Below, piece after piece: positions 14,469 to 56,705 of a DNA stretch of 64,000 nucleotides; within the stretch, counting starts at the first letter, position 1, and each line of letters begins with the position of its first letter. Under the pieces are notes generated by a model. The model made no database searches, was not told the origin of the DNA, and was given only the letters and a program-made list of their open reading frames with translations. The stretch spans positions 300,551-364,550 of the forward strand of contig JAVSCE010011590.1 in assembly GCA_032199065.1 (NCBI GenBank), written 5' to 3'. The stretch is from Smutsia gigantea (Eukaryota). Made by a program: the position numbers and the translations under genes.

Positions 14469-14851
14469 GTAAGGAGTAGCGAACCTGCGGCCCGAGTAGG
14501 TCAGGTGCAGAGTGAGGTTCTTTTGCTCAGCAAGGGGGCTTCTGTGGACGTCTGATAGGCAGACCTAAGTCGGGACCCTTCAATAAGTCCTTCGAGTGGC
14601 GGGAGGGCAGATCTCGGAGGAGGGTTCAGGCAGTATGAAACGATCTAGTGGGTGAGGGGCTGAAGGGCCTATGGTGCACGGAGGCGAGGAAAGGGTTCAG
14701 AGACAGTAGGGTTTGCACCCCCGCCCGAGGAAGGAGGCTTTTTCACAGCCTTATCTGGTTTCACGACTTATTTGCATCTGTAGGCAACCCCGTAAAAATA
14801 CTGCTGCGGTGGGCCACGTGGAACAGGTTCAGAAAGGCTTTCGTTTCCGTG

Positions 14852-14909
14852 ATGCCGAAGCGTGGGAAAAAGGGATCGGTGGCCGAAGAGGGGGAAGAAC
14901 CTAAGATTG
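14852..14909 (+). CDS. APEX1: APEX1 coding exon (MPKRGKKGSVAEEGEEPKI); exon begins at ~14784 after acceptor ctgtag
   Basis: ATG at 14852 and donor gtaag at 14910. Matches the human APE1 N-terminus MPKRGKKGAVAEDGDE. Confidence 0.9.
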
Positions 14910-15115
14910 GTAAGATAATGAAATGGGTTCCTTCGTCTAGAGGCTGCGATGGGGGTGTTTCTAATTAATAAAAAGTAAGTAAGGACCGATTCAATACATT
15001 TTTGAGGATTTTGTAAAGTCGTGGCAGCTGCAGGCCCTCTGCGGGTCTGTAGTTAAATCTGGATCAAAGTTGGATACCACCTTTTATCACTGACTATGCG
15101 TTACTTATTTTACAG

Positions 15116-15303
15116 AGCCAGAGGCCAAGAAGAGTAAATCAGGAGCAAAGAAACACGAAAAAGAGGCGGCAGGAGAGGGGCCAGCCCTGTATGAGGACCC
15201 CCCAGATAAGAAAACGTCACCAGGTGGCAAATCAGCCTCACTCAAGATCTGCTCCTGGAATGTGGATGGGCTTCGAGCCTGGATTAAGAAGAAAGGCTTG
15301 GAT
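15116..15303 (+). CDS. APEX1: APEX1 coding exon ([63 protein letters not shown])
   Basis: Acceptor ttttacag and donor gtgagt are present. The translation matches human APE1 residues ~20-82. Confidence 0.9.
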
Positions 15304-15819
15304 GTGAGTGTAATTCGAGAAAGAAGAGACATTCTTTATTGTTGAATAAGCTTGGGGTTTAATCACCTTTTCCCATTTCAGTCCTCAGCTCGTAGGTTTT
15401 ATTTTTACCTTATCTTTAGTTTTCTTTTGGGAGAGGTAGAAGGAGGGGGTCTCACCAAGTCATAACTATTCTATTTCCTAAATGTCCATTCCTTAACCTC
15501 CATTGCCATTGTCTGGTTTGAAAAAAAGTTACTGGACTTGCTCCGTTTCATGTCCAGTATATCCTCCATTTAAGTAACTACTTAAAAATCTTAGCCAGCT
15601 ATACACTGCCTATGGAAAAAAACAGTCTTGTGTTCGTTTAACACTCTGCATTCGTTGCCAGTTATATAATTTATAAATGTTTATTGTGCTGCTAGACTCT
15701 TAAATGCCTTATGCTCAGGAACTATGTCTCACCTGTGTATCTCTAGTATGAGGCACATAGATTCTTGAATAAATAATCTGCTAAACCAGTAAGTTTTCGA
15801 CCTTGCATTTCATTCACAG

Positions 15820-16012
15820 TGGGTAAAGGAAGAAGCCCCAGATATCCTGTGCCTCCAAGAGACCAAATGTTCAGAGAACAAACTGCCACCTGAACTGCAG
15901 GAGCTGCCTGGACTATCCCATCAGTACTGGTCAGCTCCCTCAGACAAGGAAGGGTACAGTGGTGTGGGCCTGCTGTCCCGCCAGTGCCCACTCAAAGTCT
16001 CCTATGGCATTG
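15820..16012 (+). CDS. APEX1: APEX1 coding exon ([64 protein letters not shown])
   Basis: Acceptor cattcacag and donor gtgag are present. The exon is 193 nt and the phases are consistent. Confidence 0.9.
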
Positions 16013-16145
16013 GTGAGATCCCGTTGATTCCTAACACTGGAGCTCTTCCAAGCTAATTGCTAATACCCCAGTCCAGCCCCTGGTTTGGATTCGTTTGTTC
16101 TTTGCTTTTTCTTTCACACTTTATGCTGGTTCTGTTTCATTTCAG

Positions 16146-16663
16146 GTGAGGAGGAACATGATCAGGAAGGCCGAGTGATTGTGGCTGAATTCGACGCATT
16201 TGTGCTGGTAACAGCCTATGTACCTAATGCAGGCCGGGGTCTGGTACGCCTGGATTACAGGCAGCGCTGGGATGAAGCTTTTCGCAAGTTCCTGAAGGGG
16301 TTGGCTTCCCGCAAGCCCCTTGTGCTATGTGGGGATCTTAATGTGGCTCATGAAGAAATTGACCTTCGCAACCCTAAGGGAAACAAAAAGAATGCTGGCT
16401 TCACTCCGCAAGAGCGTCAAGGCTTTGGGGAGTTGCTGCAGGCTGTGCCCCTGGCTGACAGTTTTCGGCATCTCTACCCCAACACGGCCTATGCCTACAC
16501 CTTCTGGACCTACATGATGAATGCTCGATCCAAAAATGTTGGTTGGCGCCTTGATTACTTTCTGTTGTCTCATTCTCTCTTACCTGCATTGTGTGATAGC
16601 AAGATCCGATCCAAGGCCCTGGGCAGTGACCACTGTCCCATCACCCTATACCTAGCACTATGA
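16146..16663 (+). CDS. APEX1: APEX1 last coding exon ([19 protein letters not shown]…[13 protein letters not shown]), including the stop codon; total CDS 318 codons
   Basis: Acceptor tttcag is present. The translation matches the exonuclease III family nuclease domain of human APE1 through the C-terminus, with the stop codon ending at 16663. Confidence 0.95.
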
Positions 16664-16901
16664 CACCTACCCCCAATCACTCAGCCTGGGAAATAAGCCC
16701 CCCAAAATTAGCTTAACCCTTAAACCCTTCCTCCACAGCTTCTTTAAAAACTGCTCTCTAGAGATCTGCACTGTATTTTCCTTCTAAAAATAATCTCTCA
16801 ACCAGGCTCCTACTGACAGATTTCTTTTAAGCCCAGTTTCCTTTTTTTTCTTTTTTTACACTAAAAACTACTGATGATTTTCTTTGAACTGTCCATGTGC
16901 A

Positions 16902-16907
16902 AATAAA
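16902..16907 (+). terminator. APEX1: APEX1 polyadenylation signal AATAAA
   Basis: This is the only AATAAA within ~250 nt downstream of the APEX1 stop codon. Confidence 0.5.
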
Positions 16908-17015
16908 GAGCCATAGTTTCATCCTTGCTGTCTTTGTATTCTACCCCCTTTTGGGCTGCAAATTCCCATCTTTTCATACATAAAGATTAACAACTGGAAG
17001 AGAGTCATGAACTTA

Positions 17016-17021
17016 TTTATT
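17016..17021 (-). terminator. PIP4P1: PIP4P1 polyadenylation signal (AATAAA on the minus strand), ~670 nt downstream of the stop codon
   Basis: The plus strand reads tttatt at 17016-17021. It converges on the APEX1 poly(A) signal, which lies about 110 nt away. Confidence 0.4.
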
Positions 17022-17683
17022 TACAAGCATAGGATGAGTCCCTAATTTCCACCAAGACAGCAACCCTACCTAGCCCAGTTAAATGGTGCAACTGGGGGGT
17101 AAAGTTGGAAGGAGGAATTAAGGGAAACAGGACTGGGGAATATACCCCACATTAAATAGTTATATACACATCAATTCCTGTGGTTCTGTACAGAGCAGCG
17201 GCTGACTCCCCCACAGGACACAATGGTGGGGGAGGAGGCTGAGGGTACTGAGATCAGAGCCGGCCCCTGGTGAAGTGCAATAGCAGCAGCAGTCCTAAGG
17301 GTACACAGCAGGAGGGGAAACCCCCAGGGCTACCCACCCCCACCCACTGGCCCTGGAATGTGTAAGGGACAGGAATGGCTCTCAGAGCATAAAGGAAGGA
17401 CAAGGCTAGAACCCTCTGGTAGGACCCAGGTTTAGGGACGTTTTGCCTACTTCACCCTAAACACAGCAACCCTTGGAGGAAGGCGGATGACCAGCAGTGG
17501 TCTTACCTACCCCTCCAAGCCTAGGTGAGGGCCTGGTTCCGTCCTACCTCTCCCCGGGGAAGAGGCAGGCAGCTGCTTGGCTCCCCTTACAGAGCTCTGG
17601 GAGCCTTTTACCATGGCTCCCTTTGTAGTGTCACTGTCCCCACCAGGGAGGGGCCAGGCACAGTCTGTGGATCATCATGGGGC

Positions 17684-17827
17684 TCAGGAAAAGTTCTGGA
17701 CAGGGTGGCTGACCTTCATACAGGCCCAATAGAAGGCCCGGCCCAAACACAGCACAGCCAACAGGATGACAAATGCCCAGGCTGCATAGATGCCTCCATA
17801 TCGCTGTGCATGCTTCCATGTGCCAAA
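17684..17827 (-). CDS. PIP4P1: PIP4P1/TMEM55B last coding exon ([47 protein letters not shown])
   Basis: Matches the human TMEM55B C-terminus, including the second transmembrane segment. Acceptor cttcatcag is present. The stop codon tga is the reverse complement of 17684-17686. Confidence 0.9.
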
Positions 17828-18287
17828 CTGATGAAGAAAAAGAATGATGAGTTACTGTTGAGTTCACCACTTTCTATAAGTCCTAGTGACAGTGACACAG
17901 AACTCAAGCTTCAGCCTCTGGTCCCTATCAAAAGGTCTCAGAGATCTTTTCAAAGACAGTTCTGCTTCCTTCCCCTGGGCCAGAACATACTCAAACAATC
18001 CCAGACATCTGTTATTCTTACTCTTTGACAATTGAGCCAGGTTTCCTAAACTCTTAGTTTAAGTCACTGTATTGTCCTATTCTCTGCATAAAGAAGATGG
18101 CAGGTTTTTACTCCTATAGTAACAGCAAAGATTATCAGTTACCTTCAACTTCAGTTCATTTGTACATTAAAAGAACAAACAAAAACCCACTGATTTCTCT
18201 CACTCCTTTTTAGCGTAGCCATTTCCCAAATCTGAGTCTATGGAGATGAAGCTGAAGAACAAAAGGTGTTGGATCACGTTTACTCAC

Positions 18288-18378
18288 AGCAAGGCCAGTG
18301 GCAGTGACTGCCAACAGTAAGCCAAGCAAGAAGCAGCAAACACATCTCTTCCGTGGATACCTACGCCCAATGGAAGAC
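18288..18378 (-). CDS. PIP4P1: PIP4P1 coding exon (SSIGRRYPRKRCVCCFLLGLLLAVTATGLA)
   Basis: Matches human VSSIGRRYPRKRCICCFLLGLLLAVTATGLA. Acceptor ccctgcag and donor gtgagta are present. Confidence 0.9.
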
Positions 18379-18481
18379 CTGCAGGGAGGCAAACAATGGA
18401 TGTTTGCAATGACCCTCTACTTTTTACTTTATACGCATCACCCAACTACCAGCTCAATGATGCCCCTCACTAATCACTTAC

Positions 18482-18534
18482 ACTTTCCTGCAGTGAGGGC
18501 AACGGGCCAAGGTTCGGTCTGTGAACTCTGTCCA
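18482..18534 (-). CDS. PIP4P1: PIP4P1 coding exon (WTEFTDRTLARCPHCRK)
   Basis: Matches the human sequence exactly. Acceptor ccttag and donor gtaagt are present. The exon is 53 nt. Confidence 0.85.
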
Positions 18535-18733
18535 CTAAGGAGAAAAAAAAACGAAGAAACCATTTAATAGTAGAAGCAAAATCATCTTTAACTGTGAGCC
18601 CTGAGGCAGAGGAGGGTGGGAAGCAAGTCCTCATAGAACAGACCTTTTTAGGATTCATAACTGTAACTCAGAAATACATCCATGATTACTCCTGGGTTTT
18701 TTTTCCCCCGGTCTTCCCAGTACTCCTCCTCAC

Positions 18734-18839
18734 CAGAAAAGTATTCTTGCAATGTCCACAGATGACCCTGACACCCACAGGTTGTGGTTCAGGACTCAGA
18801 GGTCCTGGATGCACAGGCCCCAGATTGATGATTCTTTTG
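18734..18839 (-). CDS. PIP4P1: PIP4P1 coding exon ([36 protein letters not shown])
   Basis: Matches human [36 protein letters not shown]. Acceptor ctacag and donor gtgagg are present. Confidence 0.9.
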
Positions 18840-19295
18840 CTGTAGAAGAGAAAAAAACTGTTTAAAAAATTTCCAATCCTAAGAATCCCTACACTACTCT
18901 TTCATATCCCCCACTCCTTGCCTGCTGAAGTTCCTCTACTTCCTGTACATTTAAGATACCTCACTGTCCCCCAACCCTATCCCACAGAATCCCTGAGGAA
19001 AAGCACTGCTTAAACTTCAGGTCTCTAATTTCCCTTTAGGGTAATCCACTCAGTCCCTGAGACTCTCCATTTTCCAAAAGGACAGCATTTCATCCTAATC
19101 TTTTTATTGAGAGATGAGAAAGGTGGCTGTAACATACCAGAACCACAACCATTTTTAGCTTTTTCTCCTTCTAAATAAACACCAGACTCTCTCACCTTTA
19201 CATCTCTCTCACCTTTACATTCTCTTTAAACATTCATCCTTTTTTGGCCTTCCAATTTTCCCCAATAATGCCCTTCTCCACCTTATGCCTCTTAC

Positions 19296-19402
19296 CAGTA
19301 GGGCCGAGGGCAGGCAATCCGCTGGGAAGTCACTTTGCAGATGAGGAGACAGTTACAGGGGCATCTAACGTATTTTTTCCCTGGAGGTGCATTCTTGATT
19401 GG
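19296..19402 (-). CDS. PIP4P1: PIP4P1 coding exon ([35 protein letters not shown])
   Basis: Identical to the human segment. Acceptor ctctag and donor gtaaga are present. Confidence 0.9.
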
Positions 19403-19781
19403 CTAGAGAATAATGGGGACATCAGTAAGCAAACCTCTAATTCTGATCCCTTCCATTTCCTCCAAAAAATATCTTCTGAAGAGAAATCAGACAGATGTCT
19501 TAGCCAGGGAAGAGATATGAAAGAAAGGCATACAGCATGGGATTTGCAAATAAACACAGGGCTTAAGTATCCAGGACAGGTATGAAGGTGAGGGACGGAA
19601 AACATTAGCTTTGGTGAGTGGCTTTTGGGGAAATGCTGTGTGACTCTCCTGGAACTAAAACCTGGGTTTCATGAAGAGCACTTGGCAAACACCTGCAAGT
19701 CTGGGTCTAGAATCAAGGGATCAGAAACAGGATCCAGGAAAAAAGGCCCATCTCACAGATATGTATAAATAAGTAACTCAC

Positions 19782-19972
19782 AGTGGCTTCATTGCAGACA
19801 CCACATTTGACTACATGCTGATGCATTTTGCCTTCCACGTTGATGAGAGACTGGCAAACTCGGCAGGTAATCATGGGGGCACTGCCACTGTCCGGGCTAG
19901 TCAGGGGTGAGTAGGGGGGCGGGTCCTCCCCAGGCAACACGGCTGGGTGTCCCTCTGGGAACGGGGGAAATG
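19782..19972 (-). CDS. PIP4P1: PIP4P1 coding exon ([64 protein letters not shown])
   Basis: Matches human. Acceptor ttctccag and donor gtgagt are present. The exon is 191 nt. Confidence 0.9.
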
Positions 19973-20305
19973 CTGGAGAAGAAGGTAAAAGAAGAGCTGG
20001 CATCACTTGCAGACACCCTCACTGATGCTCCACGGGGTCATGGAACGCCTTCTGGTCCTCAACCCTTCTGCCCAAGCTCGGCGGACTTCTTATAATCCGG
20101 ACTTCCATCAGCTTCCTCAGAACCCCCTCACGTTCCCAAACTCCTGTTGCGATTGCGGAGTGAAGCAACTGTCACCCAAGTGACAGCTCCGCACCTCGCG
20201 CTTGGGCCCCGCCTCTGCGCCCGGGCCCTCCCCTCTCGTCTCTCCAGGGTACCCCCGGGAACACCGCGGACCCGCCCCCGCTTATCCTGGGCGGGGCATG
20301 TTTAC

Positions 20306-20447
20306 CGGCTCCGTACGGAGGCGCGGAAGGGGTCAGGCCTCCCCCGGGCCCAGGCCCACTCCCGCCAGGCCCCACTAGTCCATTGCCGCCAGCACCACCG
20401 TCGATGGGCTCGGAGAGCAGCGGGGATCGCTCTCCATCTGCCGCCAT
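20306..20447 (-). CDS. PIP4P1: PIP4P1 exon 1, coding part (MAADGERSPLLSEPIDGGAGGNGLVGPGGSGPGPGGGLTPSAPPYGA); total CDS 277 codons
   Basis: The ATG is the reverse complement of 20445-20447 and donor gtaaac follows. Matches the human TMEM55B N-terminus. It is embedded in a CpG island. Confidence 0.9.
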
Positions 20448-21100
20448 GGCCTCCACCAGTGCCTCCCGCTTCGGCCAAGGACCCGGCTCTCTTCCCCGCT
20501 GCCGTCGCCGCAACCACCACCGCCGCCGCTACCGGGTCCTTAGGGCGCCTGCGCGCGGCGCGCACAGCTTTTCCCCGCAACCAGTGGCCTGTCCCGCCCC
20601 GGTCTGTCCCACAGCACGTGATACGCTATCCTCGCCCCCTCCGTGCTGTTATTCCCAGAAATAAACCAATCCCTGGTCTCGTGAAGGCGTCTCTTTTTTC
20701 CCATTGGGGAGGGTCGTGGTAACGTTTAGTGTCACATGACCTTCCGGAGCCCTCTGGGCCTGCAAAAACTGCACGTGACAGGAGGTTCTGCAAGCCATTG
20801 GAAGCGTAGCCCATCGCACTACCTACAGACAAGGAGGTGAGGCTGCTCTATTTCAGCTCGCTGGTCATGTGCTTCAGAAACCAGCAGGTCCTCTAGGGGG
20901 TGCGCTCCCAACGGGTGCACGATCTTTGCTCCTTATTGGTCCAACGACACCACTAAAATATTTTACTTCCCCTTTGCGTATAATTGGTTTCCCATTGGCT
21001 GGAGTCTTCCCTTTCCCGTCCTGTGATCGCTGGGGCGCAATTTTATTGGCTCGAGTGTAGGTCCGGAATCGGGCGTGGCTCAAGAGCTAGCAATGAAAGA
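20448..21100 (-). promoter_or_regulatory. PIP4P1: PIP4P1 CpG-island promoter / 5' UTR region
   Basis: A very GC- and CpG-rich block lies immediately upstream (at higher coordinates) of the minus-strand ATG. The long ORFs on both strands here are compositional artefacts. Confidence 0.55.
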
Positions 21101-21411
21101 GTGCGGGAGGAGGAAAGGTGGGCGACAATCAGTCTCTCAAACTTCCTGTTGAAAGTCAGAGTAAAGGTTATGCTCGGAGGAAACGGGTTAAATCGTTGAG
21201 GTTATTACCCCATCCTTTCTCACTGGAGTCACTTCTGGAACAGCACACAAGACTGGCTTCTCCAGGACGCTCCTCTGTAGACTCCTGCCTCCTCCCCTGG
21301 TTAGATTACGAAATTGTGTCTGCACCGCTACAAGGAGAGCTAATCGTTTTAGTTTTGTGACATCTCCCAGTCCTAAACACACATCTGTGATAAGTTTTGA
21401 TTTAGTTAACC

Positions 21412-21916
21412 AATCAAGTGTCTTGCCAATGAGTTTCAGCTCAGGCAAGCTCGCTATAGATTCACTGTGACCAAAGAAATTTACAGCAAAGGATTCTTGG
21501 GGTGAAAAGGTGATACCCAACTTTATTTCCAGGTGGCAGATCAGTCACTAAAATCCCGTTCACTCAGAGAGAGTCTGTGTTATCGCTGCTGCTTTGGATA
21601 CAGCAAGCCAGTCTCTGCCTCTGGGCCTCTCTGTTCACCCGTCCCGTACAGTTGTCCTCTGGGCCTCTCTGCACAGTCTGTACAGCCGTCTGCACAGCCG
21701 TCCTCTGGGCCTCTGTCTTCAGTGTTGCCACTACTCCAGCCTCTGCTCCGCTCTCCTACAACCTTGCAGCCCCACCACCCTGTCTCCCGCAGAGCATGGG
21801 CGGAATGCTTTATATTAACACAATAATGGCTTATTGCCTAAAGGTGTGGAAGCGGCAGCACAGCAACAGGCCAGTCACATCATCAGGTGGTTTTAAGTTC
21901 AGCGAGGATCCTGGCC
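21412..21916 (+). mobile_element. Solo-LTR-like repeat, family A copy 1 (TG…CA termini, internal ~24-bp VNTR cagccgtcctctgggcctctctg)
   Basis: Three homologous copies are present (this one, 30836-31340 on the plus strand, and 35497-35975 on the minus strand). All share the start (g)tgtcttgc(a/c)aatgagtttcag and the end ggaaccccac(t)tta(t/c)cca, and all contain a tandem repeat array. Candidate short TSDs: caagt flanks this copy. Confidence 0.5.
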
Positions 21917-22695
21917 ATAGGAACCCCCCTTTACCCACACAAGTCCAAAGATATTTTAGTCACCTTGTTAGATAGGACAGGCTTTAAACTAGTCTTAACA
22001 ACTACATCCCCAGCCACGAGATTGCTACGTAGAGGTCATTCTGACAATATTGGAAGACATGCAGCTCAGACCTTTGAACAGCCAGTCCACCTACCCACTC
22101 TCCTTTTCCTCCTCGCAGAGCAGGTAAGAGGACACCTCCTCCCATCTGAGTAAGCACAGAATTCCTCTGGAATCTTTCATAGGTGGAAATGGTGTAGGGG
22201 GAAGAAGCAATTGCCATTCATTAACATGGAAAAGTTTTCAAGCATTTCCAGACCCAAAAAATACCCTCTCCTAGACTTTTCTGATACCTTAGGACCCATC
22301 TTGCTAACAGAAGCATAAAAAATAAGAGATAAAGCATGGATGATTCCAGATATAGTTTAAAGCTATGCCAACTTAATACTTAGGTGCTTAGTGTTGTCCC
22401 CCCAGGGAAGGAACTTGGTGGGGCCACTCTTGCTGCTCTGGTGCCAGAAGCTGCTGTAATGGATTGCTGCAAAACAATTGCTGAACGCTATTTTAACTTT
22501 TCACCGTTTTTTTAAAAAAAACAAAATCCTCTTCTGGTTTCTTTCACTTAGCAAAAACAGGTACAGGCCTGCCTCATTTGATTGCCCTTCACTTTACTGA
22601 ACTTCCCACATACTGTTTCTTTTTTTTTCTGCACACACACAAAAATGGAAGGTTTGTGGCAACCCTGTATCCAGCAAGTCTATCAGTGCCATTTT

Positions 22696-25600
22696 TGAAA
22701 GGGGGGTTCTTCAGCTACCCGATTCACTCATTCAGGAAGAGAGGACACGAGAGCTCCAGCAGCGAAGTTTATTGCCTGAAAGACAGAATGCCTTTCTCTA
22801 AAGGAGAGAGCAGCAATGGCAAGGGGGAAGCTGCTTATAAAGGAATTTGAGCGGGAAGTTGGTCTCGTGACTTCTATGCATTATGAGGTTCAGGAAGAGG
22901 GGGTGCTGATTGGATGGTTTAAAACAAGTATGTCCTATACATTTTCTATAGGTTGAGCTTAGCTGGCGCCGAGTTGCCGGCTGATGTAACTTAGAAGATA
23001 TGTAGGTAAAGGGAAGTAGGTACCTTTTATGGTAAGGGCAGGTTACCTTTGCCCTTTACAGTCGGGTGGCTGGTCGTTGCTAGGGAAACTATCTAGAATG
23101 AGGGTCACTTGAACAATGGGTGGGTTTTCCAGTAACTAGAACACATTTTTCTTAGAACTAGGTTGGGGGTGAGGCTTTGGGGGATTCAAGGCTGGGGTGC
23201 AGCTGCTGCAGGTGATACAAAGAGGGGGGACTTACTATGCTCGGAGGCAGTTCTGGGTTCTAACATTCCAGCATTTTTGTTGTACTTTCTATGCCGGGTG
23301 TAGGGGCTTGGGGTTGAAGTGTTGGATCATCTGGCTGCTTCGTAAGGGAAAAGGGGCGACATGGCGATGGAAAGGGCAGTTGCAGGGGAGGGGTGGCGAA
23401 GAACGGTTGACGGCTCAGACTTCTGTTAGCACGGCGTTGTCTGCTGTCAGGATTCTTCTGTTGGGAGGCAGTGGTATTCCTGCATGATTAACTGGTTGAT
23501 AGTTTGGTTAGTGAATTTTGAAATTTGGGTTTGAATGAGGTTTCTTAGGAAATTAATTAGGCAGGGAGCGAAGAGTAGAAGGAGGCAGAAAATGATAAGA
23601 GGCATGAGGAGAGGAAGTAGGATGTCTCTCAGAGTTGGTTTAAGCTTATGGTTTCTGTTTCATTTTCTTTTTTACAGATAGAGACTTTAGCTGCTGCTAG
23701 GGAAAGAGGGCGATGACTGCTCTGGCTGCTTCATGCTGAGAGGGGGCACAGTAAGGGATGCAGCTAGGTCTCCATCAGTGGGTGGTCAGGAGGGCATCGG
23801 AAGATGGGAGTTTTTTTCTTGGGCTCTAAGGCTATCACTATTTGCAGCTTCATGGCTTTTAGGTGAGACAGAACAAATCATGTCACTAGGTTAAGCAGCA
23901 ACATCTGGAGTTGGATTCTCCATTCTGGAAGGACAAACTTGACAAGAAGATTAAAGAATGCATGGCTGAATATGAGGACTAGAAATAGTAAATTTCTAAT
24001 TGAGAATCATAGCCAGATATCTTGGGAAACTAGAATTCTGGATCTAGTCTATGTACTAATGACTAGTATTAGGACTTAGTATAAATAAGGCTGCATTATT
24101 GAAACAATACTTTTCTCTAAAATCACCCTCACTTTCATTAGAAGTAACCAGATTAAGAAAATAATTAACACTTGGCTTGATTATTTGCATAAGTGCAGCA
24201 AGAAGAGCAATTGATTACATAGGCTCTTTTAAATGTGCTTTGCTGGAACTTTTTATAAGGAACTTCAGATTGGACTTTTAAAGGCCACACAAGGCCAGAA
24301 AGCCAAGCCAGACTTGCCATCAGGTTTTGCCTGCAGTACCTGCAGATTTGGGTGAATTCCTCTCTTCTTGAGGTCCCCAAGACATTCTGAGGTTCCTGCA
24401 CCTGCCAGGAAGTGACCTTCTTTACTCACCTAGTAAGGCTGCTGGGAATTCTGTAAGCAAGGTACCAGGCCAGTTTCTTCAAGGGGCTCTGTTGGTTCCA
24501 TTGAAGTCAACTTCAGTTCCTTAAAGCTGTTCATATCTGAGTTTATGCACGTGTCTCTCAGGTATAACATTCCAGTCAAAGCCTTGGTAATATAACCAGT
24601 GTTTTTAATTGGTTTTCTTACAAGGAAAGCAGATTCTCATTGAACTTATGCAAATAAACATACTGCCATGAAATATGAAAGTAGTCACTGAGTTTTAAAT
24701 TCTGGAGGGATCAGGTAGAGAGATAAATGTTTCAATTCTGCTTATAAAGGTATTGTCATTTACTAAACTGTTGTCAGCTTAAGAGAAAAAGCTTAAAATA
24801 CTATCAGTAACATTTGAAAAAAAAGCCACAAAACTATTTTCTTTAGTTTACTTAATCCTATGTAAATACTTGTTCTGCTGAAATCTAGTTTTTTACTAGT
24901 TTAGTAGTAATAATACAGTGACTATAAATGACAAAAGACTTGTAAATGAGAGTAGCTAAAGATCTGATGAGAGCTTACTATAAGACAGTTGACATAAGGA
25001 AATTTGGATATTTTTGCAACACAAAACATCCAGCAACAAAGTTTAGCATCATTTTGTTTGACAGTATTTTCCAGGTAATTAAGCTATTTACATATCAGAT
25101 AAATAAGCTGAATTAGCCATATACTTTCTCTAATGAAGAGAAAATTCCTCTGACATTTTCCAGGGGCCCTCTGGAAAATATCAGAGTTAACTAGGGGTAA
25201 AATTACCCTTTTGAATTTGATTTTGGCAAGTTGTCAGAAGAAAGTTTCTTTGGCACTTGCTTAAATAGGATTATAGGTATTTAATTAGAATGACAATAAA
25301 AAGGCTTAAATGCAAATACAGGTTACTCAGTTGTTAACAACACTTGGCTTGCAGTCCTCCCAATACCAAGACTTCATTTTCCCAAACACTCAGAGAACTC
25401 TTTGAGACTTTAAGCATGAGAAACTGCCGTGATAAAAACAATGAGAAAGTTCTTTACAATTTGTCAACATTAAGAGCAGACTACTCAATTTAAGAAAACT
25501 GTCTTTAACTGAAAAGAAAATTCTAATTTTGCTGTGTACTTGATATCAAGATGCATTTGCTTTAATTTTACATAGCACAACCATGTCAATTTTTCCACAA

Positions 25601-28600
25601 ACTTTCTGCAACTTTCTTTTTACATCCACTGTTCTCCTTCTTTAAATAAACAGCTGTACTTCAGAACAGTTACCTTCTTTTACTCTAAATAAAATGAATC
25701 TCCATTCCTTATACCTTCTCTTGTTAAAGCACACATCTTTTCTAGCAAGCAGAGATGTTTTCTTTATTACTTTAAGTAGTTTTAATTAGAGCTTAAAACC
25801 GTTAGGAACTTTAACTTTCAGTGAACACTGAAAATAGGCTATGGTAAACTGTAACACCAGCATTCCTTAGATTGATACATTTATGAACGTATTTTATCAT
25901 TTCTGAAAATGTACCTTATAGCACAATTTTTACTGAGCACAAAACATCTTCATATAACTTAGCAAAACTCTAAGAATTTTGGTTACCACAAAAATTCTTA
26001 GGCTGTTTGCAGATATACATAGTTATACATTAATATACTATTATTATTATTAAGATATTTACTTGTTACACTTGTTTACACACTCTTTAGCAATTATGCT
26101 AGATTATTTATAAAACTTTTATTAGACATTAGACAAAGTCAAGCTTTTCTTTAAGTATCTTTTTGAAAGATTTAACAGATAACATCAACTTAAACAAATT
26201 TAAGTAAACTTAGGCAGGTGATAATTATAAGGACATGTCTGTTTCAGTTAAATTTAAATTAGCATTAATGCTTAATATTTTTATTAGAATTTTTTTGGAA
26301 GTTTTAGAATGCCCAATTTTCACAAGTACTTGTTTTTAAATTAATTTGTATTAATACCATCCGGAGGTAGAAAAACATTTTTCTTTACACACTTAGACAC
26401 AGAAACATACAGATTGAGATGCAATGACTACAGTTAGCAACACTTTTCATGAAAGAACATATACACAGACAAACTGGTATAAAGATTTGAGTTGCTGATA
26501 TTTAATTGCTTTCTTTCCTTTTAGCTTATTTCACTAAAAGTATCTCAGTTTTCAAGAATACACTCTAAAGGCAAGCAGTTTACATAACTGGGTTAAGGTT
26601 TAGATGGCTCCAGGCTAACAGGGCCGATGAAGGCTCTAAACTGATAGGGACTTGTGTGTGCCCAGGGGGCTAGAAGTTGAGGTGTCAGCAGGGAAGGGAG
26701 TAGGGAAGCAAATGTTGCTAAGGGTGCATGTAGCAAAGGAAATGGAGGGATCTTCTAGAAAGGTGACTTGCAGGACTAGGATTTGGCTAGGGGGAAGGAT
26801 TTTCAGACTTCTGTATGTTAAGAGTTCTGACAGGTGGTGGGGTGAAAGGATGGTGGTGGGTGTGCCAAAGGTGAGCTTTCTTGCCTCTTGGTGGAGAATA
26901 GCTGCAGCTGCTAAGGTGCGGAGGCATGGTGCCCACCCTCGGGTTGTGTTGTCTAGTTGTTTTGACAGATAAGCTATAGGAGCTGGGGAGGTTGGAGTGG
27001 CTTGGCATAGGGCTCCAAGAGTGAATCCATGAGTTTCATTAACATATAAAAGAAAGGGCTTAGTAAGGTTGGGTAGGTGTAAAGCAGGTGCCTGTAACAG
27101 AGCTTGCCGCAGGGAGGAGAAGGGGTGGCTGCTGGGCTGCTGGAGAGGTTCACAGACAGGGGCCCTTGGCTGCTGCGTAGAGGGGGCGGCGAGTAGGGAG
27201 ATGTTGGGGACCCAGTTGCAAAGAAAGTTGGCTAAACCCAGAAAGGAAAGAATCTCTTCTTTGGTAGAGAGGACTGGAATGTCCTGAAGCACTTTTTTCC
27301 TGCATAATGTGATGGCCTTTCGTCCTGGAGTCAATAGGATGCCAAGATAAGAAACTTGTGAGGTGGAGAGTTGTACCTCTTCTGGAGAAACTCGATAGCC
27401 ACAGTCAGAGAGGTGATTTAGGAGGGTGATGGTGTCTTGTTGGGAGATGGTTAAGGAAGGACTGCAAAGAAGCAGATCATCTACATACTGCAGCAGAGTG
27501 GAGTGGGCGAGTGAAAGGTTCTGAAGGTCTCATGCAAGGGCTTGTCCAAATATATGGGGGCTGTCTCTAAATCCCTGGGGAAGGACAGAGTCCAAGTCAG
27601 TTGAGTGGAGGAGCGGGATTTAGGGTCTGTCCACGTAAAAGCAAAAAGATTTTGGGAGTTGAGGTGGAGAGGTATGGTAAAGAAGACATCCCTTAAGTCT
27701 ATTACTGAAAAGTGGTGGAGCTTGGGAAGGAGGAGAGGAGAGTATATGGGTTGGGTACTACGGAATGGATGGGGATACTGCTTCATTTACAATTCGGAGA
27801 TCTTGGACTAGCCTGAAAGTGCCGTTAGGCTTTTTCACTGCAAGTATTGGAGTGTTGAACAGGGAGTGGGTTGGCTTCAAGAAGCCTTTTTTTTAACAGA
27901 TTTTGGATGATTGGCTGGAGGCCAAGTTGGCTGCGCAAGGATAGCGGGTATTGGGATTGTGATGGGAAGGAGTCTGGGTTTTTAAGACTAATCTGGACTG
28001 GGCTGCACTTAGCTAGAGATGGGTTATTTGTGTCCCACATGGAGGGATTTACAAGGTTTGGCTACTTCTCTCAGTGGGGCTAAGAAGTGAAGCTGTGAAG
28101 GGAGAAGAAGGGAGGGTGGAGGGGTGGAGACAGGCTGCGCACTTGAGGCTGCTGAGCTTTGGCCTGCTGTGCGATAAGGGGGGGTTCGTTTGCAGGGTCT
28201 GGGTCTAGGGAAGAGGAGGGAGCTGGGTCTGGAGAAGAAGAGGAAGTGTTTGGAGAGCTTGAAAGGACGGCAAGGGGATGTTTAGGGTGGCAAGAGCTAT
28301 ATAGAGAAGGAGAAGAAAGCTTGAAAATAGGGAATTTCCTTCCATTTGTCTGAACGCTCACAGAAGTTGTGGAGGTCCTGAGGGACCTTAGAATCTAAGG
28401 ATCCATATTGAGGCCAAATTGTTTGGTTGTCTAAAGGATATTGGGGCCAAATCTGGCTGCAGAGCCGAATTAACTTGGAGGGTTTTAGATCTGGATGTAG
28501 ATGAAGAGTTTGAAATTGTCTAGGAGGCAGCTGAGCGGGGAATCGGCAGAGATGGAGGGGGATGCTCCCGTTGTGACTCTTTCGTGGAGTTGCTGCAGCA

Positions 28601-29868
28601 CACCCCAGGCGTCCCTAGGGGGTTCCGAACTCCAAGAGTAGCCCAACTCCAAGTGAAAGGTCGTCACCTCTGTCACTGGAGGGACACACTTGCCCTGAGC
28701 AAGCAGTAGGTGCCTAGCGCTAGGACTTTTCGGCTGTGAGCCAATAGAACAGAAGAGTCACAATGGGGGCAGTCTCTCACCTGCTGGGGACAAGAGGGAC
28801 TGGGGCGTCACTGACCTGCTGTGGGCCTAGTTGGGGTTCAAGAGGGATGGGAGAAACTAGTGGACTGGGGCGTCACTGACCCGCTGCGGGTCTAGGGGGC
28901 AAGTATCTCGCCTGCTGGGGACGAGAGAGACTGGACTGGGGGCAAGTCTCTAGCCTGCTGGGGACGACAGAAACAGGACTGGAAGTGACTAGGGGCAGAG
29001 CCGTGGCCAACTGAAGGCCGTGGCTGGGGGCAGTCCCCCGCCTGCAGTGAGGCCATGAGGGTGCCGGACACTCAACGGTCAGCCCTCAGGCACTCACAGA
29101 GGCGTTTAAGTCACTTGATGGGGGAGGGTGACTCACCGCTCCTTTCCTGCCGGTGGTGGATGCTGGAAGTGGCGTTCGGGGAGATGGAAGGCGCTGCAGA
29201 GGTCCCGTGTCTCTGAAAGAGGTCGGGCGCTGGGGGCTGCAGGGCAGCTCAGATTCCCGGGGGAAGAGCAGGCTCCTGGGGGGGGCCCCAATCCGAGTCA
29301 CGGCACCAATGAAAGGGGGTTCTTCAGCTACCCGATTCACTCATTCACGAAGAGAGGACACGAGATCTCCAGCAGCGAAGTTTACTGCCTGAAAAACAGA
29401 ATGGCTGTCTCTAAAGGAGAGGGCAGCAATGGCAGCAAGGGGGAAGCTGCTTATAAAGGAATTTGAGCGGGAAGTTGGTCCCGTGAATTCTATGCATTAC
29501 GAGGTTTAGGAAGACGGGGTGCTGATTGGATGGTTTAAAACACGTATGTCTTGTACATTTTCCATAGGTTGAGCTCAGCTGGCACCGAGTTGCCCGCTGA
29601 TGTAACTTAGAAGATATGTAGGTGAAGGGAAGTAGGTACCTTGTATGGTAAGGGCAGGTTACCTTTGCCCTTTACGGTTGCTAGGGAAACTATCTAGAAT
29701 GAGGGTTACTAGAACAATGGGTGGGTTTTCCAGTAACTAGAACACATTTTTCTTAGAACTAGGTTGGGGGTGAGGCCTTGAGGGGATTCAAGGCTGGGGT
29801 GCAGCTGCTGCAGGTGATACAAAGGTGAGGGGGCTTGCTATGCCTGGAGGCAGTTCTGGGTTCTAACA
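22696..29868 (-). mobile_element. Full-length class I (gamma/epsilon-like, ERV-H-like) endogenous retrovirus provirus: 3' LTR 22696-23265, degenerate env/pol/pro/gag interior, PBS 29291-29308, 5' LTR 29310-29868
   Basis: The two direct repeats of 570 and 559 bp (tgaaaggggg…gggttctaaca) are about 93% identical by eye. Immediately internal to the upper LTR, the minus strand reads TGGTGCCGTGACTCGGAT, an 18-nt perfect complement to the 3' end of tRNA-His. Minus-strand ORF fragments have gammaretroviral RT motifs (27481-27786: FSVIDLRDVFFTIPLH…LFAFTW…QLTWT) and the RT thumb/connection region (26636-27334: ILSFLGLANFLCNWVP). The provirus is flanked by atttt on both sides, consistent with a 5-bp TSD. 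Confidence 0.85.
29291..29308 (-). other. Retroviral primer-binding site complementary to tRNA-His
   Basis: The plus strand reads atccgagtcacggcacca, which is the tRNA-His 3' terminus including CCA. The reverse complement is the PBS, placed 2 nt after the LTR terminal CA. Confidence 0.8.
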
Positions 29869-30361
29869 ATTTTTCCAATAGCATTTGCTCACTTCGTGTC
29901 TCTGGGTCACATTTCGATAATTCTTGATATATTTCAACTTTACATTGTTATTTGTTGTAGTGATCTTTAATCAGTGATTTACAACTTGCTGGAAACTCAG
30001 GTGAGGGTTGCATTTTTTTCTCCATCAGCAGAAATTTTTATTTCATAACTGGTTGCATCATGCAATCCATACTTCAAAAAATAACATTTTGTAATTCTCA
30101 AAATTATGAGTTACTTAGCAACAAATGAGTAAACTTCATTTCAGAAATATCTTGGGTCTGTCTGCCAAGTTCTCAAGTATTTTTTGGGTAAAAACACATC
30201 TGGGCATGCTAGGCAGGAAAATAGATACGAGCAGGGTGGAAAGAGAACAAGGTCAATAAAGCCCCCCTAGAAGGACTCAGTTAACCAGTTAAAACTAAAA
30301 TCCAGGAAAGATTCAGAGTTAATGAGTTAATCAGTTAAAGCTCAAAAGGTCAAGAGCAACT

Positions 30362-31545
30362 TGGCCTTGAATGTTTGAATATTCCCCAGATAAGGAAAAG
30401 TATCTGAGCACAGCCCATGTCTTCATTGTGTCAATTAGATCATTGTAAGATTTACTCTAGCCTGCTAAAAGATCCACCTATAAACAGCATAATAAAGACA
30501 GGGAGACCCCACCTTAAAGCCAAAATTGCATTTTGAAAAAAAAACCCCAGGAAGTTTAAGAAGATTCTTAACATACTCTTTAGCCAACAAATAACTCTGC
30601 CCGCCTTCGTGGAAGGGCAGACAGTCTTGATTGATATGCTCCCAAACCAGAAAGCTGCTGTCCTGGGAGGGGACCAGAGCAGTAAATATCTTGTGTTAAG
30701 CTAAATTTGCAGAATCCCGTAGAGGACTGATAAGAAACTTAATGTCTCATCAAAGATACTTGAGACCACTTAATAAGTCCACACCCCTAGCCTTTTGTCA
30801 CATTACTGAAAAATCCTTAAGAGGGGGTGTCTTGCAAATGAGTTTCAGCCCCAGGCAAGTTCGCTGTAAATTCACTGTGACCAAAGAAATTTACAGCAAA
30901 GGGTTCTTGGGGTGAAAAGGTTATACCCAACTTTATTTCCAGGTGGCAGGTCAGTCACTAAAATCCCGTTCACTCAGAGCGGGTCTGTATTATCACTGCT
31001 GCTTCGGATGCAGCAAGCTGGTCTCTTCCTCTGGGCCTCTCTGTCTGCACAGCCGTCCTCTGGGCCTCTCTGAACAGCCGTCCTGCACAGCTGTCCTCTG
31101 GACCTCTCTGCACAGCCATCCTCTGGGCCTCTGTCCTCGGTGCTGCCACCCCTCCAGCCACCGCTCCGCTCTCCTACAGCCTTGCAGCTCCGCCACCCAG
31201 TCTCCGGCCAAGCCCTGGGCGGAACTCCTTACATTAACACAATAATGTCTTATTGCCTAAAGGTATGGAAGTGGTAGCATAGCAACAGGCCAGTTACATT
31301 TAAGTTCAGTTAGGATCCTGGCCATAGGAACCCCACTTTATCCATGAGGGGCAACCCCCAACCTTTCAGGGCATTCCTCTCTCTGAGGAACTTTCTGAGT
31401 TCGAAACTTTAACTTTTCCCAGCCTTTCATGGCACTCCTCTCTGTCTGAGGTCACCTGCACTTTCTAAGTAACTTTAAATAAAACTTTTGCTCTGCTTCA
31501 CTACTGTGTCTCTGCTCTTCAATTTGTCGCAGCAGGGACAAGAAC
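30362..31545 (+). mobile_element. LTR (family C) carrying a nested insertion of the family A solo-LTR-like repeat at 30836-31340
   Basis: The sequence at 30362-30835 (ccccagataaggaaaagta…ctcatcaaagatacttgagaccacttaataagtccacacc) and at 31341-31545 (…taaataaaac…acaagaacc) is collinear with the solo copy at 59492-59830. That copy carries ctataaatcccc and gaataaaagcc, a TATA-like element and a poly(A) signal. The intervening 505 bp is the family A repeat, flanked by gagggg on both sides. Confidence 0.5.
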
Positions 31546-35090: not shown

Positions 35091-35496
35091 GGAAACTGAA
35101 AATATTTGGAAGCATTTTTCCCCTAACTTCTGACTAAGTGGACTACCCTATGGCATAAATGGCACAGAATGGGGTGGGAAACTTCTGCCTGGTTTTGTGA
35201 CCCACAGTGTCCCCATTTGATCTCCCTTTCCCACATATCCTATTTCTCCTTTCCTCTTTACTGAAGTGTTAGTTTTCCACCTGTGGGAAAAGAACACACA
35301 GTCCCTTACTCCATTTTCCAGGGCAAGAATGTTTTTGGTAATGTGCGAAGTGAGTTAACCAAGATGAGGGGAGGTAGGGAGTTGGATGATTGATAGAGTA
35401 GAGTCTAATTTTAAGGAGTTAATTTCTGTTTATTATACTGAGTCTTTGCTCCCTTTCCTCCTGCCCATTGTGGATAAAGTGGGGTTCCTATGGCCA

Positions 35497-35975
35497 GGGT
35501 CCTCACTGAACTTAAATGTAACTGGCCTGTTGCTATGCTACCGCTTCCATAATACCTTTAGGCAATAAGCCATTATTGTGTTAATATAAGGAGTTCCACC
35601 CAGTGTTCTGCCGGAGACTGGGTGGCGGGGCTGCAAGGATGTAGGAGAGCGGAGCGGAGGGCTGGAGTGGTGGCAGCGCCAAGGACAGAGGCCTGGAGGA
35701 CGGCTGTGCAGGACGGCTGTGCAGAGAGGCCCGGAGGATGGCTGTGCGGGACAGCCGTGCAGAGGGGCCCAGAGGCAGAGACAGGCTTGCTGCATCCGAA
35801 GCAACAGTGATAACACAGACTCGCTCTGAGTGAACAGGATTTTAGTGACTGACCTGCCACCTGGAAATAAAGTTGGGTATAACCTTTTCACCCCAAGAAC
35901 CCTTTGCCGTAAATTTCTTTGGTCACAGTGAATGTATAGCGAGCTTGCCTGGAGCTGAAACTCATTTGCAAAACA
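35497..35975 (-). mobile_element. Solo-LTR-like repeat, family A copy 3 (inverted)
   Basis: This is the reverse complement of copies 1 and 2 and includes the VNTR array. The 190-aa and 95-aa ORFs in the track at 35538-36110 and 35573-35860 lie inside this repeat. Confidence 0.5.
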
Positions 35976-37640
35976 CCGTACATTGCCCCAGTTCTTGGCC
36001 CCCTGCCTTTGGGGTATATTAGCATCCCTGTTGGGGAAGTATTTGGTCAGTCTTTTTACTTTCATTCTGTTCCTGCCACTGGGTGAGGCGTAGACATGGA
36101 TCTCATTCACAGAAAAGAAATGAAAATGATCCCTTTAACAGGAAAAAAAAAAAGAAAGCAAAACTAAAATAATAACTTCAGGAACTGGAGAAAATGGAAG
36201 GTCAGAGATTCTTGGTGGTGGGAGGTATTTAAATAGGAGAACATCTATCTTGTGGTCTAGGGAGTATGAGAAATCTCAGCCGAGAGGGCAGGAATGAAAC
36301 AGTTCCCCTGCCTAAAGAATCCTGAGAGGTAGATCTTGCTTCTGTAAATGCTGACCTTGGGAGTCACTATCTGAAGACATCTTTCCTCTCTAAGGCAATA
36401 CTGAATGACTTAGCACCTGTCGCTTCTGGTAGTCAGTGTCCTTGATCCTGAGCATGGACGATGCTGTATGTGTCTGCACGTGGAGTCCCTCAGAAGTTAG
36501 AAGAATGGGCAATAAGGCAGTAAGGAGCTATCGTCACTCTAAGGTTGATGACTGCTTGGTTCTTGACTACAGGAACCCTGAAAGTGTAGGATAAAGCAAA
36601 GTTCCAGCTTCTTTTATCTGGATAAAGTGTAGCAGTGACTAGAAAAGGTAAGAACAGCACTATGAAAAGGTCAAATGTTCTGTGATGATGAAATGTTTCT
36701 TTCCTATGCAGTTTGGCAGCCACCAGCCACATGTGGTTTTGAGCAGTTTCAATGTGATTAGTACAACTAAGGAACGGGATTTTCAATTTTACTTCATCTT
36801 AATTAATTGTATTAAGTTAAAGTAACCACATATGGCTAATGGTGGCTGTTTAGAATAGCACAGGATTGGAGTTGGTATTGATGGGCTGGGTGTAACCCTA
36901 GCTTTCCTTCTGATCCTTTCATGGTGTGGTGGGGCTAGAGAAGTCACAAAGAAAAAAGAGACAACAAGGAATAAAAATAGCCAACATTTACTGTGTGCTT
37001 ACTCTAATCCCAGGCACTTAGTTACACACCTAATTGGCATTTTATATAATCCTTGCAGGAACAGTAAGTACTATTATTACTACCATTTTACAGATGAGAA
37101 AACTAAGCATAGTGTAATTGTACTTGCTTTGGGCCACACAGTTGGTAACTAAAGGGTGTAGAGGGAATTCATACACAGGAAGTTTGATTACAGAGTCCAC
37201 TCATCTACACTGTATAGATTCAGGAATGAAGCTACATGGAGTGACTGTGGCCAAATCTTCCAAACTCCATGTCAAGGTGCAAATTCACAGGGGTAAAATT
37301 GGATATTTTAAAATTTTAAGGGAAGAAAAGCAAAAACAGCAATATTGAACATCTCTTGTGTGCTTTGTAAACTACTAGCTCAAGGTAATTCACAATTGAA
37401 TATGTGATTGTTGCTACATTCCTTTTGATGACAAAATATCTTTGCAAAGCTGGGTTTCAGGAGATACCCCTGATTAAATAGTAAGTGCTGTGTGAAAATC
37501 AGCTGGCAACAGGAAATGAGTAGCAGAGTTGAATTCCAAGGTTTGAGAAATTGTGCAGTGCGTAACAGGCACACATATCCCATTAGTAACTATTTGTGGT
37601 TATTTAAGAAAAAAATTAAGAAGTATTTTTTTTCTTTCAA

Positions 37641-56080: not shown

Positions 56081-56650
<570 letters not shown>

Positions 56651-56705
56651 TAGGCCAGAGCTTACTGTAGTACATTAATCTGAGATAATCCAACCTGTGT
56701 CCTAG

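Follow-up and report, generated by a model that had tools for sequence, protein, structure and literature searches.

The DNA analysed here (the window, 64,000 nucleotides from Smutsia gigantea) carries two similar long terminal repeats (LTRs) between the genes PIP4P1 and PNP, which raises the question of whether they bound one endogenous retrovirus (ERV), to which retroviral group it would belong, and how much of it survives. We conclude that the segment very probably derives from one germ-line integration, in a pangolin ancestor, of a class I retrovirus primed by tRNA-His or of a defective derivative, probably rearranged later and presumably now inert. Its features are listed below.

22691-22695: left copy of the target-site duplication, ATTTT, read from sequence and identical to the right copy
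22696-23265, minus strand: 3′ LTR, 570 bp, with CCAAT at 22913-22909, TATAAG at 22839-22834 and AATAAA at 22773-22768
23266-23335, minus strand: spacer from env to the 3′ LTR, with a weak polypurine tract …AGAAAGTACAACAAAAATGCTGGAA followed by TGTTAG
23336-23659, minus strand: env transmembrane remnant, with the membrane anchor LLPLLMPLIIFCLLLLFAPCLINFL and a cytoplasmic tail running to …PYEAAR*, interrupted by stop codons
23660-23899, minus strand: C-rich stretch, ERV-like in composition
about 23900-26560: foreign block, AT-rich and non-coding, about 2.7 kb long, its edges approximate to within about 100 bp
26639-28183, minus strand: pol remnant, reverse transcriptase (RT) and connection domain, with frameshifts and stops, ending just before RNase H
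28083-28316, minus strand: proline/serine-rich stretch, gag p12-like by eye only
28306-28568, minus strand: gag matrix (MA) remnant identified by tblastn, start codon lost
28569-29290, minus strand: GC-rich 5′ leader, with a 43-bp tandem duplication (two copies) at 28895-28982
29291-29308, minus strand: primer-binding site (PBS) TGGTGCCGTGACTCGGAT, followed by a one-base spacer at 29309 and then the 5′ LTR
29310-29868, minus strand: 5′ LTR, 559 bp, with CCAAT at 29529-29525, TATAAG at 29455-29450 and, at 29386-29381, a poly(A) signal mutated to AGTAAA
29869-29873: right copy of the target-site duplication, ATTTT

LTR pair and primer-binding site

The LTRs align at 94.0% identity, with 33 substitutions in 553 aligned positions (23 transitions and 10 transversions) and indels of 15, 3, 1 and 1 bp, the longest being an insertion in the 3′ LTR relative to the 5′ LTR at 23063-23077. 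The K2P distance between them is 0.0626, or 0.0496 without CpG sites. Read on the minus strand, both start with TGTTAG and end with CCTTTCA, giving TG…CA termini. The original prediction had placed between PIP4P1 and PNP a provirus with two LTRs of about 560 bp, roughly 93% identical and differing by a 15-bp indel, with atttt on both sides and the LTR, PBS and target-site duplication architecture of one insertion; the alignment, the PBS adjoining one LTR, the identical 5-bp flanks and the exons of both genes mapped on either side all agree with it. If the element is taken out together with one ATTTT, what is left on either side joins into what we take to be continuous Tigger1-like sequence; the uninterrupted site would read …CAGTGCC ATTTT TCCAATAGCATTTGC…. 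A joined-flank query for a paralogous empty site found no other copy in the sequences compared. The polypurine tract 5′ of the 3′ LTR is a weak purine-rich run and counts against the reading as a single provirus. The junction of GGAA with TGTTAG, together with the start of U3, is common to this element and the ERV-Fc1-like locus L006.

The PBS corresponds to the tRNA-His 3′ end at 18 of 18 positions and to tRNA-Phe at 13 of 18 (the latter counted by eye), and is the sole match in the window with up to three mismatches, 0.02 being expected by chance. The claim of an exact 18-nt tRNA-His site is thus upheld, and Phe does not offer a better fit. No tRNA genes were found in the window. The reverse complement of the human tRNA-His-GTG-1-1 3′ end is the same sequence (primer in PMC12217144), as is the HERV-H PBS primer in PMC3253121; PBS typing is, however, inconsistent across ERV groups (PMC1224870).

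Surviving genes and the AT-rich block

A search with 120 homologues and with reference proteins (the complete gag, pol, integrase and env of two relatives) matches the element in three places only, MA, RT with its connection domain, and the env C-terminus, and these remnants are co-linear on one strand in the order gag, pol, env. In tblastn the MA remnant matches residues 3-90 of the Gag proteins P0305 and P0306, both with Pfam Gag_MA and Gag_p30, at 49% identity (E=8e-20). The neighbouring p12-like stretch found no database support.

The RT N-terminus lies at about 28040 and the YVDD motif within 27455-27529, and Pfam reports RVT_1 (E=1.9e-12) and RT_RNaseH_2 (E=7.6e-11) in this region, RT being the only Pfam domain found. 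Coverage by the 120 pol-region homologues in tblastn is confined to about 26600-28150. The longest open reading frame, of 232 aa (26636-27334, minus strand), is part of this remnant, in keeping with the earlier observation that RT motifs are recognisable and that no ORF exceeds 232 aa.

Of env, the last ~110 codons survive, with a reference-protein match at 23453-23575; translation of 23450-23659 gives 18 matches at E<=1e-3 (best 2.2e-9), several of them bearing the C-terminus of Pfam TLV_coat, and the tail also aligns with the L006 env C-terminus. Only the anchor and tail are left, the immunosuppressive domain and CX6CC motif being absent. A second copy of the env-terminus motif is present at 23721-23747, where blastn aligns 27 nt to L006 7161-7187 at 89% identity (E=3.7e-5).

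Capsid, nucleocapsid, protease, RNase H, integrase and the env surface subunit gave no match with Pfam, the 120 homologues or the full reference proteins. The element has no coding capacity today. The description of a full-length provirus with 6 kb of gag-pro-pol-env accordingly fails, as the interior holds an MA stub, RT with the connection domain and an env tail, and about 2.7 kb of it is foreign.

This foreign block occupies the expected place of RNase H, integrase and the env surface subunit. Its composition (A 34%, T 34%, C 16%, G 17%, without strand skew, and with a CpG observed/expected ratio of 0.07) contrasts with that of the ERV parts (C 31-36%, G 14-17%). We found no similarity to the rest of the window or to L001 by blastn and tblastx, no Rfam match, and no Pfam match in six frames other than a sub-threshold chance match to RNA_pol_Rpb1_4; a chimeric protein query joining the block ORFs to the matrix-like stretch likewise returned nothing. 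Neither inverted nor direct terminal repeats were found at the block edges, and a second copy is absent from the window and from every locus fetched for comparison.

Retroviral class and relatives

The closest solved RT structures are those of MLV/XMRV (E=1e-88, 301 bits), compared with 103 bits for foamy virus and at most 45 for HIV, which supports the predicted class I assignment; by its RT sequence the element is classed as a class I (gamma-type) ERV, and the env transmembrane remnant is likewise gamma type by sequence. Across the RT core its identity is 52% with L006, 44% with a HERV-W-like element and 43% with MLV, these three being the RT anchors compared. The RT cluster P0174 (high-membership and human-derived), tried as a HERV-H anchor, was rejected on its gag sequence, from which we take it to be HERV-W-like.

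HERV-H proper is a primate family, and in most of its copies internal deletions have removed env and part of pol. The pangolin element shares with it the identical 18-nt tRNA-His PBS, a class I RT and a C-over-G bias (C 36% and G 17% on the sense strand, C/G 2.1), and differs in its host, its 2.7-kb foreign block and its deleted nucleocapsid. Membership of HERV-H sensu stricto is rejected, a pangolin host falling outside the primate range. Both a strong C-over-G bias and two nucleocapsid zinc fingers have been described by Jern et al. as typical of HERV-H-like elements (PMC1224870), and an "ERV-H-like" label would here be drawn from the PBS and the bias. The His priming, the C/G bias, and an env tail and RT that are nearer to the ERV-Fc1-like L006 than to MLV or the HERV-W-like element fit an affinity with the HERV-H/F supergroup, in which the element may be HERV-H-like.

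Similarity to ERV-Fc/HERV-Fc1 is seen in the env tail, whose layout LLLL(I/F)APC…NQ…LPTxE…EAAR* is common to this element and L006, and one env-tail homologue carries the NCBI name 'ERV-BabFcenv … Env-like'. L006 is probably HERV-Fc1, judging from its Phe site, intact gag and env, and human-derived samples. Its gag matrix is 49% identical to that of the pangolin element and its RT core 52%, and with RT no closer than this the two do not belong to the same family. The L006 PBS is of the Phe type (17/18), unlike the His site here, and the 18/18 match to His against 13/18 to Phe excludes the element from ERV-Fc.

The closest relatives found are the Logan contig L012, the JGI contig L013 and Manis pentadactyla L005, with RT 60-64% identical and C/G of 2.0-2.1; the L012 MA is 75% identical in nucleotides to that of this element. 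In contrast to the element, all three keep RNase H and integrase ORFs. None of the three contigs contains a PBS. The C/G bias is not exclusive to HERV-H-like elements, and M. pentadactyla L005 has it too. The best RT matches in the protein search are only 57-64% identical, and L004, L005, L006, L011, L012 and L013 were each rejected as same-family copies, representing different families without a His PBS. A further copy of this family was not recovered among the RT homologues and loci compared.

Pangolin ERVs described previously include MPERV1 and ERV-Gamma.a-e/Alpha/Beta-Mpen, with LTR-dated ages of 0-18 My (PMC12584738; PMC4643047), and the Manis pentadactyla families have Pro, Phe or Lys sites, none His (PMC12584738). 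These studies picked intact elements. The published elements share the host order, include class I members and overlap in LTR age with the one described here. The closest M. pentadactyla RT (P0169, L005) is about 60% identical in protein and 66-68% in nucleotide sequence, and at this distance it represents a separate family; the His PBS and this RT distance lead us to reject membership of the described M. pentadactyla lineages (MPERVs). Pangolins thus contain C-rich class I ERVs primed by tRNA-His, whereas the survey of intact M. pentadactyla ERVs reported only Pro, Phe and Lys.

Origin, age and gene context

In the reading that we favour, a class I (gamma-type) retrovirus or a defective derivative would have entered the germ line of a pangolin ancestor, with tRNA-His priming minus-strand DNA synthesis and integration duplicating 5 bp of target (ATTTT); the internal deletions and the foreign block would then have arisen by DNA-level rearrangement after integration, leaving an element that is presumably functionally inert today.

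A possible but rather unlikely alternative is that the RNA which was reverse-transcribed already had both the deletions and the 2.7-kb block, such that the element was a non-autonomous recombinant ERV, primed by tRNA-His, carrying captured sequence of non-viral origin and mobilised in trans by a competent relative. The parts retained (LTRs, PBS, leader and env/3′ end) are the cis elements for such mobilisation, and movement in trans has likewise been proposed for the deleted forms of HERV-H. A marmot ORF (XP_071465310/312) joins the same RT-connection end straight to the env transmembrane tail, showing that this group of ERVs has repeatedly lost the stretch between the end of pol and the transmembrane subunit, and the duplicate env-terminus motif (23721-23747) points to recombination or a template switch. 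'Midwife' complementation has also been discussed for the ERV-Fc/H groups (PMC3093408). Against this, no second copy carrying the block occurs in the window or at any fetched locus, and the block has the look of genomic DNA, unspliced and depleted in CpG, and not of a processed transcript. An extension of the same idea, which we think improbable, is an undescribed non-autonomous tRNA-His-primed family of African pangolins whose genome had already been stripped of the segments from capsid through protease and from RNase H through env surface, had picked up about 2.7 kb of non-coding DNA from the host, and spread in trans with an ERV-Fc-like helper; such a family would be a non-primate parallel to the expansion of deleted HERV-H, with a transduced non-coding insert.

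An assembly mis-join, by which the block would not be genuine sequence at this locus, could account for the abrupt shift in composition at both block edges; we give it very little credence, as the edges are free of Ns and of repeat collapse, and ERV sequence picks up again beyond the block in the right orientation and order. Still harder to credit is an origin of the LTRs in independent insertions (two solo LTRs or two proviruses) enclosing a mosaic interior, for which only the heterogeneous interior speaks (the block of foreign DNA and the env-end motif present twice), against the identical outer 5-bp flanks, the PBS adjoining one LTR and the env end the other, the co-linear remnants on a single strand, LTR identity of 94% over the whole length, and flanks that presumably form one continuous Tigger1-like sequence.

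For a single provirus, the LTR distance would place the insertion at roughly 14 My at the mammalian average rate of 2.2e-9 per site per year, consistent with the earlier suggestion that it is millions of years old. PIP4P1 introns differ from those of Manis javanica by 0.074 (0.068 without CpG sites), such that LTR divergence is 0.73-0.84 of the local divergence between the species; with this local calibration the age is possibly 25-30 My, and at its upper end the insertion may predate the split from Asian pangolins.

PIP4P1 exons lie at 17687-20447 on the minus strand and PNP exons at 50435-57628 on the plus strand. The protein encoded by the spliced PIP4P1 exons matches Smutsia gigantea KAK2498924.1 at every residue, with 7 differences from its M. 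javanica counterpart, and marks the host as a pangolin, probably an African one; the assignment to species draws on this one conserved protein, since the APEX1 protein spliced from the window has no exact entry in the protein collection searched. The 3′ LTR precedes the PIP4P1 ATG by 2.25 kb, close to the distance of about 2 kb from the promoter region given originally, and the orientations agree; a separate solo LTR lies between the two.

Co-option of the provirus, and of the 3′ LTR above all, as a PIP4P1 enhancer or alternative promoter is speculation and seems to us very unlikely. The position and matching orientation of the 3′ LTR, and its retained CCAAT and TATAAG motifs, would suit such a role, but the LTRs have diverged about as fast as neighbouring introns, the intact AATAAA in the 3′ LTR would terminate transcripts initiated there, and the solo LTR stands between it and the gene. 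The ERV layout at this promoter also differs in M. javanica, and the arrangement is therefore not conserved. Every mammalian genome contains many class I proviruses that are old and defective, and the locus alone matters little, being an ordinary, heavily deleted genomic fossil.

When PIP4P1 of M. javanica, with 10 kb on either side, is aligned to the window, the alignment ends at 22053, short of the insertion site at 22696, because in that species another ERV, His-like and in the opposite orientation, begins there and fills the first 9 kb above the gene. African and Asian pangolins have thus each acquired ERVs of their own upstream of PIP4P1, and these independent insertions could serve as presence/absence markers for pangolin phylogeny.

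Structure and retroviral content of the provirus

Between PIP4P1 and PNP lies a true class I provirus with clean boundaries; it is old and defective, and its primer-binding site matches tRNA-His perfectly.

Features of the provirus (window positions)
22696-23265, minus: 3' LTR, 570 bp (direct-repeat search and alignment)
23453-23575, minus: Env residues 515-551 (tblastn)
26735-28183, minus: Pol residues ~59-551, RT and connection (tblastn)
28306-28568, minus: Gag residues 3-90, matrix (tblastn, 49% identity, E=8e-20)
29291-29308, minus: primer-binding site TGGTGCCGTGACTCGGAT, 1 base inside the 5' LTR
29310-29868, minus: 5' LTR, 559 bp (direct-repeat search and alignment)

The original prediction of two ~560-bp LTRs, ~93% identical by eye and differing by a 15-bp indel, agrees well with the global alignment, in which the pair shares 94.0% identity (K2P 0.0626; 23 transitions and 10 transversions over 553 positions) with indels of 15, 3, 1 and 1 bp. 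The proposed boundaries hold overall, with two edges (29310 and 23265) shifting by 1 base. Read on the minus strand, both LTRs start with TGTTAG and finish with CCTTTCA, and each contains CCAAT and TATAAG with a poly(A) signal ~65 nt beyond (AATAAA in the 3' LTR, AGTAAA in the 5' LTR). As anticipated, ATTTT directly adjoins the outer edge of each LTR. Removal of the element and one ATTTT leaves the outer flanks (22560-22695 and 29874-30030) as one continuous old repeat, which we take to resemble Tigger1, a DNA transposon, in its 5' part.

The sequence TGGTGCCGTGACTCGGAT is unique in the window even at ≤3 mismatches (chance expectation 0.02), and is perfectly complementary to the 3' end of human tRNA-His-GTG-1-1 (primer table of PMC12217144), confirming the 18-nt match reported initially; the HERV-H primer-binding-site primer in PMC3253121 has the same sequence. 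The next closest tRNA, tRNA-Phe, matches at 13/18, counted by hand.

Pfam searches of the three sense frames recovered two domains alone, RVT_1 (E=1.9e-12) and RT connection, and the longest ORF is 232 aa, in line with the recognisable RT motifs and limited ORF length noted beforehand. We also used tblastn with 120 pol-region homologues (several also with Gag_p30, protease, RNase H or integrase), with the complete Gag, Pol, integrase and Env proteins of an inferred ERV-Fc1-like provirus (L006), and with the RT, RNase H and integrase ORFs of the nearest relative, an unnamed class I ERV on a Logan contig (L012). Significant matches are confined to three places: matrix, RT plus connection, and the env end. 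The translation of 23450-23659 has 18 matches (best E=2.2e-9), several of which bear the C-terminal end of Pfam TLV_coat, and a proline-rich p12-like stretch was recognised by eye. The interior thus comprises a matrix stub, the p12-like stretch, RT and connection, and an env anchor with cytoplasmic tail. Capsid, nucleocapsid, protease, RNase H, integrase and the env surface subunit were undetected in the Pfam sense-frame searches and with all three tblastn sets, such that the provirus is full-length from LTR to LTR only and not in its gag-pro-pol-env content. The proviral leader includes a 43-bp sequence tandemly duplicated at 28895-28982.

An AT-rich block within the provirus

The single unexplained feature of the provirus is a foreign 2.7-kb segment, ~23900 to 26560, over which the composition shifts abruptly and the strand skew of the retroviral parts is absent.

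Base composition
Retroviral parts, sense strand: A 23-30%, T 23-26%, C 31-36%, G 14-17%; CpG obs/exp 0.33-0.40
Block, 23900-26560: A 34%, T 34%, C 16%, G 17%; CpG obs/exp 0.07

The block has no Pfam domain in six frames and no Rfam match, does not resemble other parts of the window, the Manis javanica locus or related ERVs, and lacks terminal repeats. Adjoining it on the downstream side is a second copy of an env-terminus motif (23721-23747, GAAGCAGCCAGA…TCGCCC…; 89% to L006 7161-7187), which is out of order, upstream of the transmembrane anchor, and may be a scar of recombination or rearrangement. An event at the DNA level that followed integration seems somewhat likelier, as the block resembles unspliced, CpG-depleted genomic DNA. 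Alternatively, the block and deletions together could reflect trans-mobilisation of a recombinant genome that was already defective; in its favor, a marmot ORF has the same RT-connection end fused directly to an env transmembrane tail, indicating that a pol-end-to-transmembrane deletion recurs in this ERV group. The ORF is encoded by an annotated Marmota flaviventris 'gene' (P0294/P0301, XP_071465312/XP_071465310; locus L004), apparently a deleted ERV that has been taken for a host protein.

Relatives and classification

The RT is gamma-type, its best solved-structure matches by far being the MLV/XMRV RTs.

Identity to the 361-aa RT core
58-64%: unnamed class I ERVs (L012, the JGI contig L013, M. 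pentadactyla, dog, vole)
52%: ERV-Fc1-like provirus L006
44%: presumed HERV-W-like element, recognised from its gag sequence
43%: MLV

L006, which derives from human-derived samples and has a Phe primer-binding site (17/18) with gag and env intact, is alike in the env tail and env-LTR junction, and one env-tail homologue carries an NCBI name after ERV-BabFc env. The sense strand C/G is 2.1; a comparable bias is described for HERV-H-like elements by Jern et al. (PMC1224870), in which primer-binding-site typing is reported to be inconsistent. The env tail, env-LTR junction, C/G bias and His primer-binding site would fit the HERV-H/F supergroup. 'ERV-H-like' is a reasonable label rather than demonstrated membership, because HERV-H proper is a primate family; the pol comparison covers the elements listed above, and the nucleocapsid marker is deleted. 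A survey of M. pentadactyla ERVs reports Pro, Phe and Lys primer-binding sites only (PMC12584738), and the His-primed lineage therefore appears to be undescribed in the pangolin ERV survey literature, although Dfam may already hold it.

A near-intact ERV-Fc1-like provirus, whose primer-binding site is Phe and whose gag, pol, integrase and env frames are open, turns up across dozens of sequencing runs (Logan and ENA contigs L006-L010, among them a human gut metagenome), presumably as human DNA carryover.

Age, neighboring genes and other repeats

The LTR K2P corresponds to ~14 My at the rate applied to pangolin ERVs in PMC12584738 (2.2e-9 per site per year), consistent with the predicted age of millions of years. 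The LTR pair divergence (K2P 0.063; 0.050 without CpG sites) is 0.73-0.84 of the species divergence from M. javanica in PIP4P1 introns (0.074; 0.068 without CpG sites). With the African-Asian pangolin split taken as near 38 My, a published estimate, the insertion would be ~25-30 My old, with wide uncertainty from only 33 differences. The site is predicted to be empty in Manis. At the M. javanica PIP4P1 locus (L001) a different ERV lies immediately upstream of the gene, oriented opposite to it, and fills all of the 5' flank covered (L001 8658-8919 and upstream, minus; the orthologous position in the window is ~22053). Its LTR is 262 bp long and its primer-binding site, TGGTGCCGTGACTTCAGAT, is His-like. 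Two 250-bp direct repeats inside it (L001 1700-1949 and 8054-8303) suggest a nested element.

Genes were placed by tblastn with human protein sequences:
17687-20447, minus: PIP4P1 exons
50435-57628, plus: PNP exons

This placement bears out the location of the provirus between the two genes, in the same orientation as PIP4P1 and with the 3' LTR upstream, 2.25 kb before the ATG (the original prediction put the LTRs ~2 kb upstream of the promoter region). PIP4P1, once spliced, encodes the same protein as Smutsia gigantea KAK2498924.1, with 7 residue differences from that of M. javanica; the M. javanica locus is 91.5% identical to 13308-21413, gaps counted. These comparisons place the window in a pangolin, most likely an African one; the assignment to species is less firm, as the window's APEX1 protein has no counterpart in the protein collection. 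The donor of the M. javanica 284-aa isoform is …CCCCAG/GGTAAG, and 20300-20315 (minus; exon 1/intron 1) reads …CCCAGGATAAG, with a 1-bp deletion and a G>A change. From these sequences the 277-aa isoform seems the only possible one, consistent with the single S. gigantea product.

Nothing suggests a present function for the provirus: it has no coding capacity, the LTRs evolve at about the rate of neighboring introns, another solo LTR separates the provirus from PIP4P1, and the Asian pangolin arrangement at the PIP4P1 promoter is different. Use of the LTR as a PIP4P1 promoter or enhancer would be possible in principle, with TATA and CCAAT kept and a matching orientation.

Three copies of a ~520-bp solo-LTR-like element with TG…CA ends are 86-94% alike:
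21414-21939: copy A
30826-31353: copy B
35460-35977: third copy, inverted

Copies A and B sit either side of the provirus and are independent of it. Copy A, flanked by a 4-bp target-site duplication (CTTG), is missing at the orthologous M. javanica site and therefore postdates the split from that species. Between the provirus and PNP, two direct repeats at 40736-41029 and 45673-45967 (77-86% identical, 4.9 kb apart) are possibly the LTR pair of an older LTR element. A co-linear inverted repeat series of ~3.7 kb (5683-9333 and 51046-54610; 75-97% identity), with one arm near OSGEP and the other within a PNP intron, probably represents oppositely oriented copies of one interspersed repeat, perhaps L1. 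L1-like 3' ends recur at 1-575, 9792-11488, 38691-40411 and 46522-46866.
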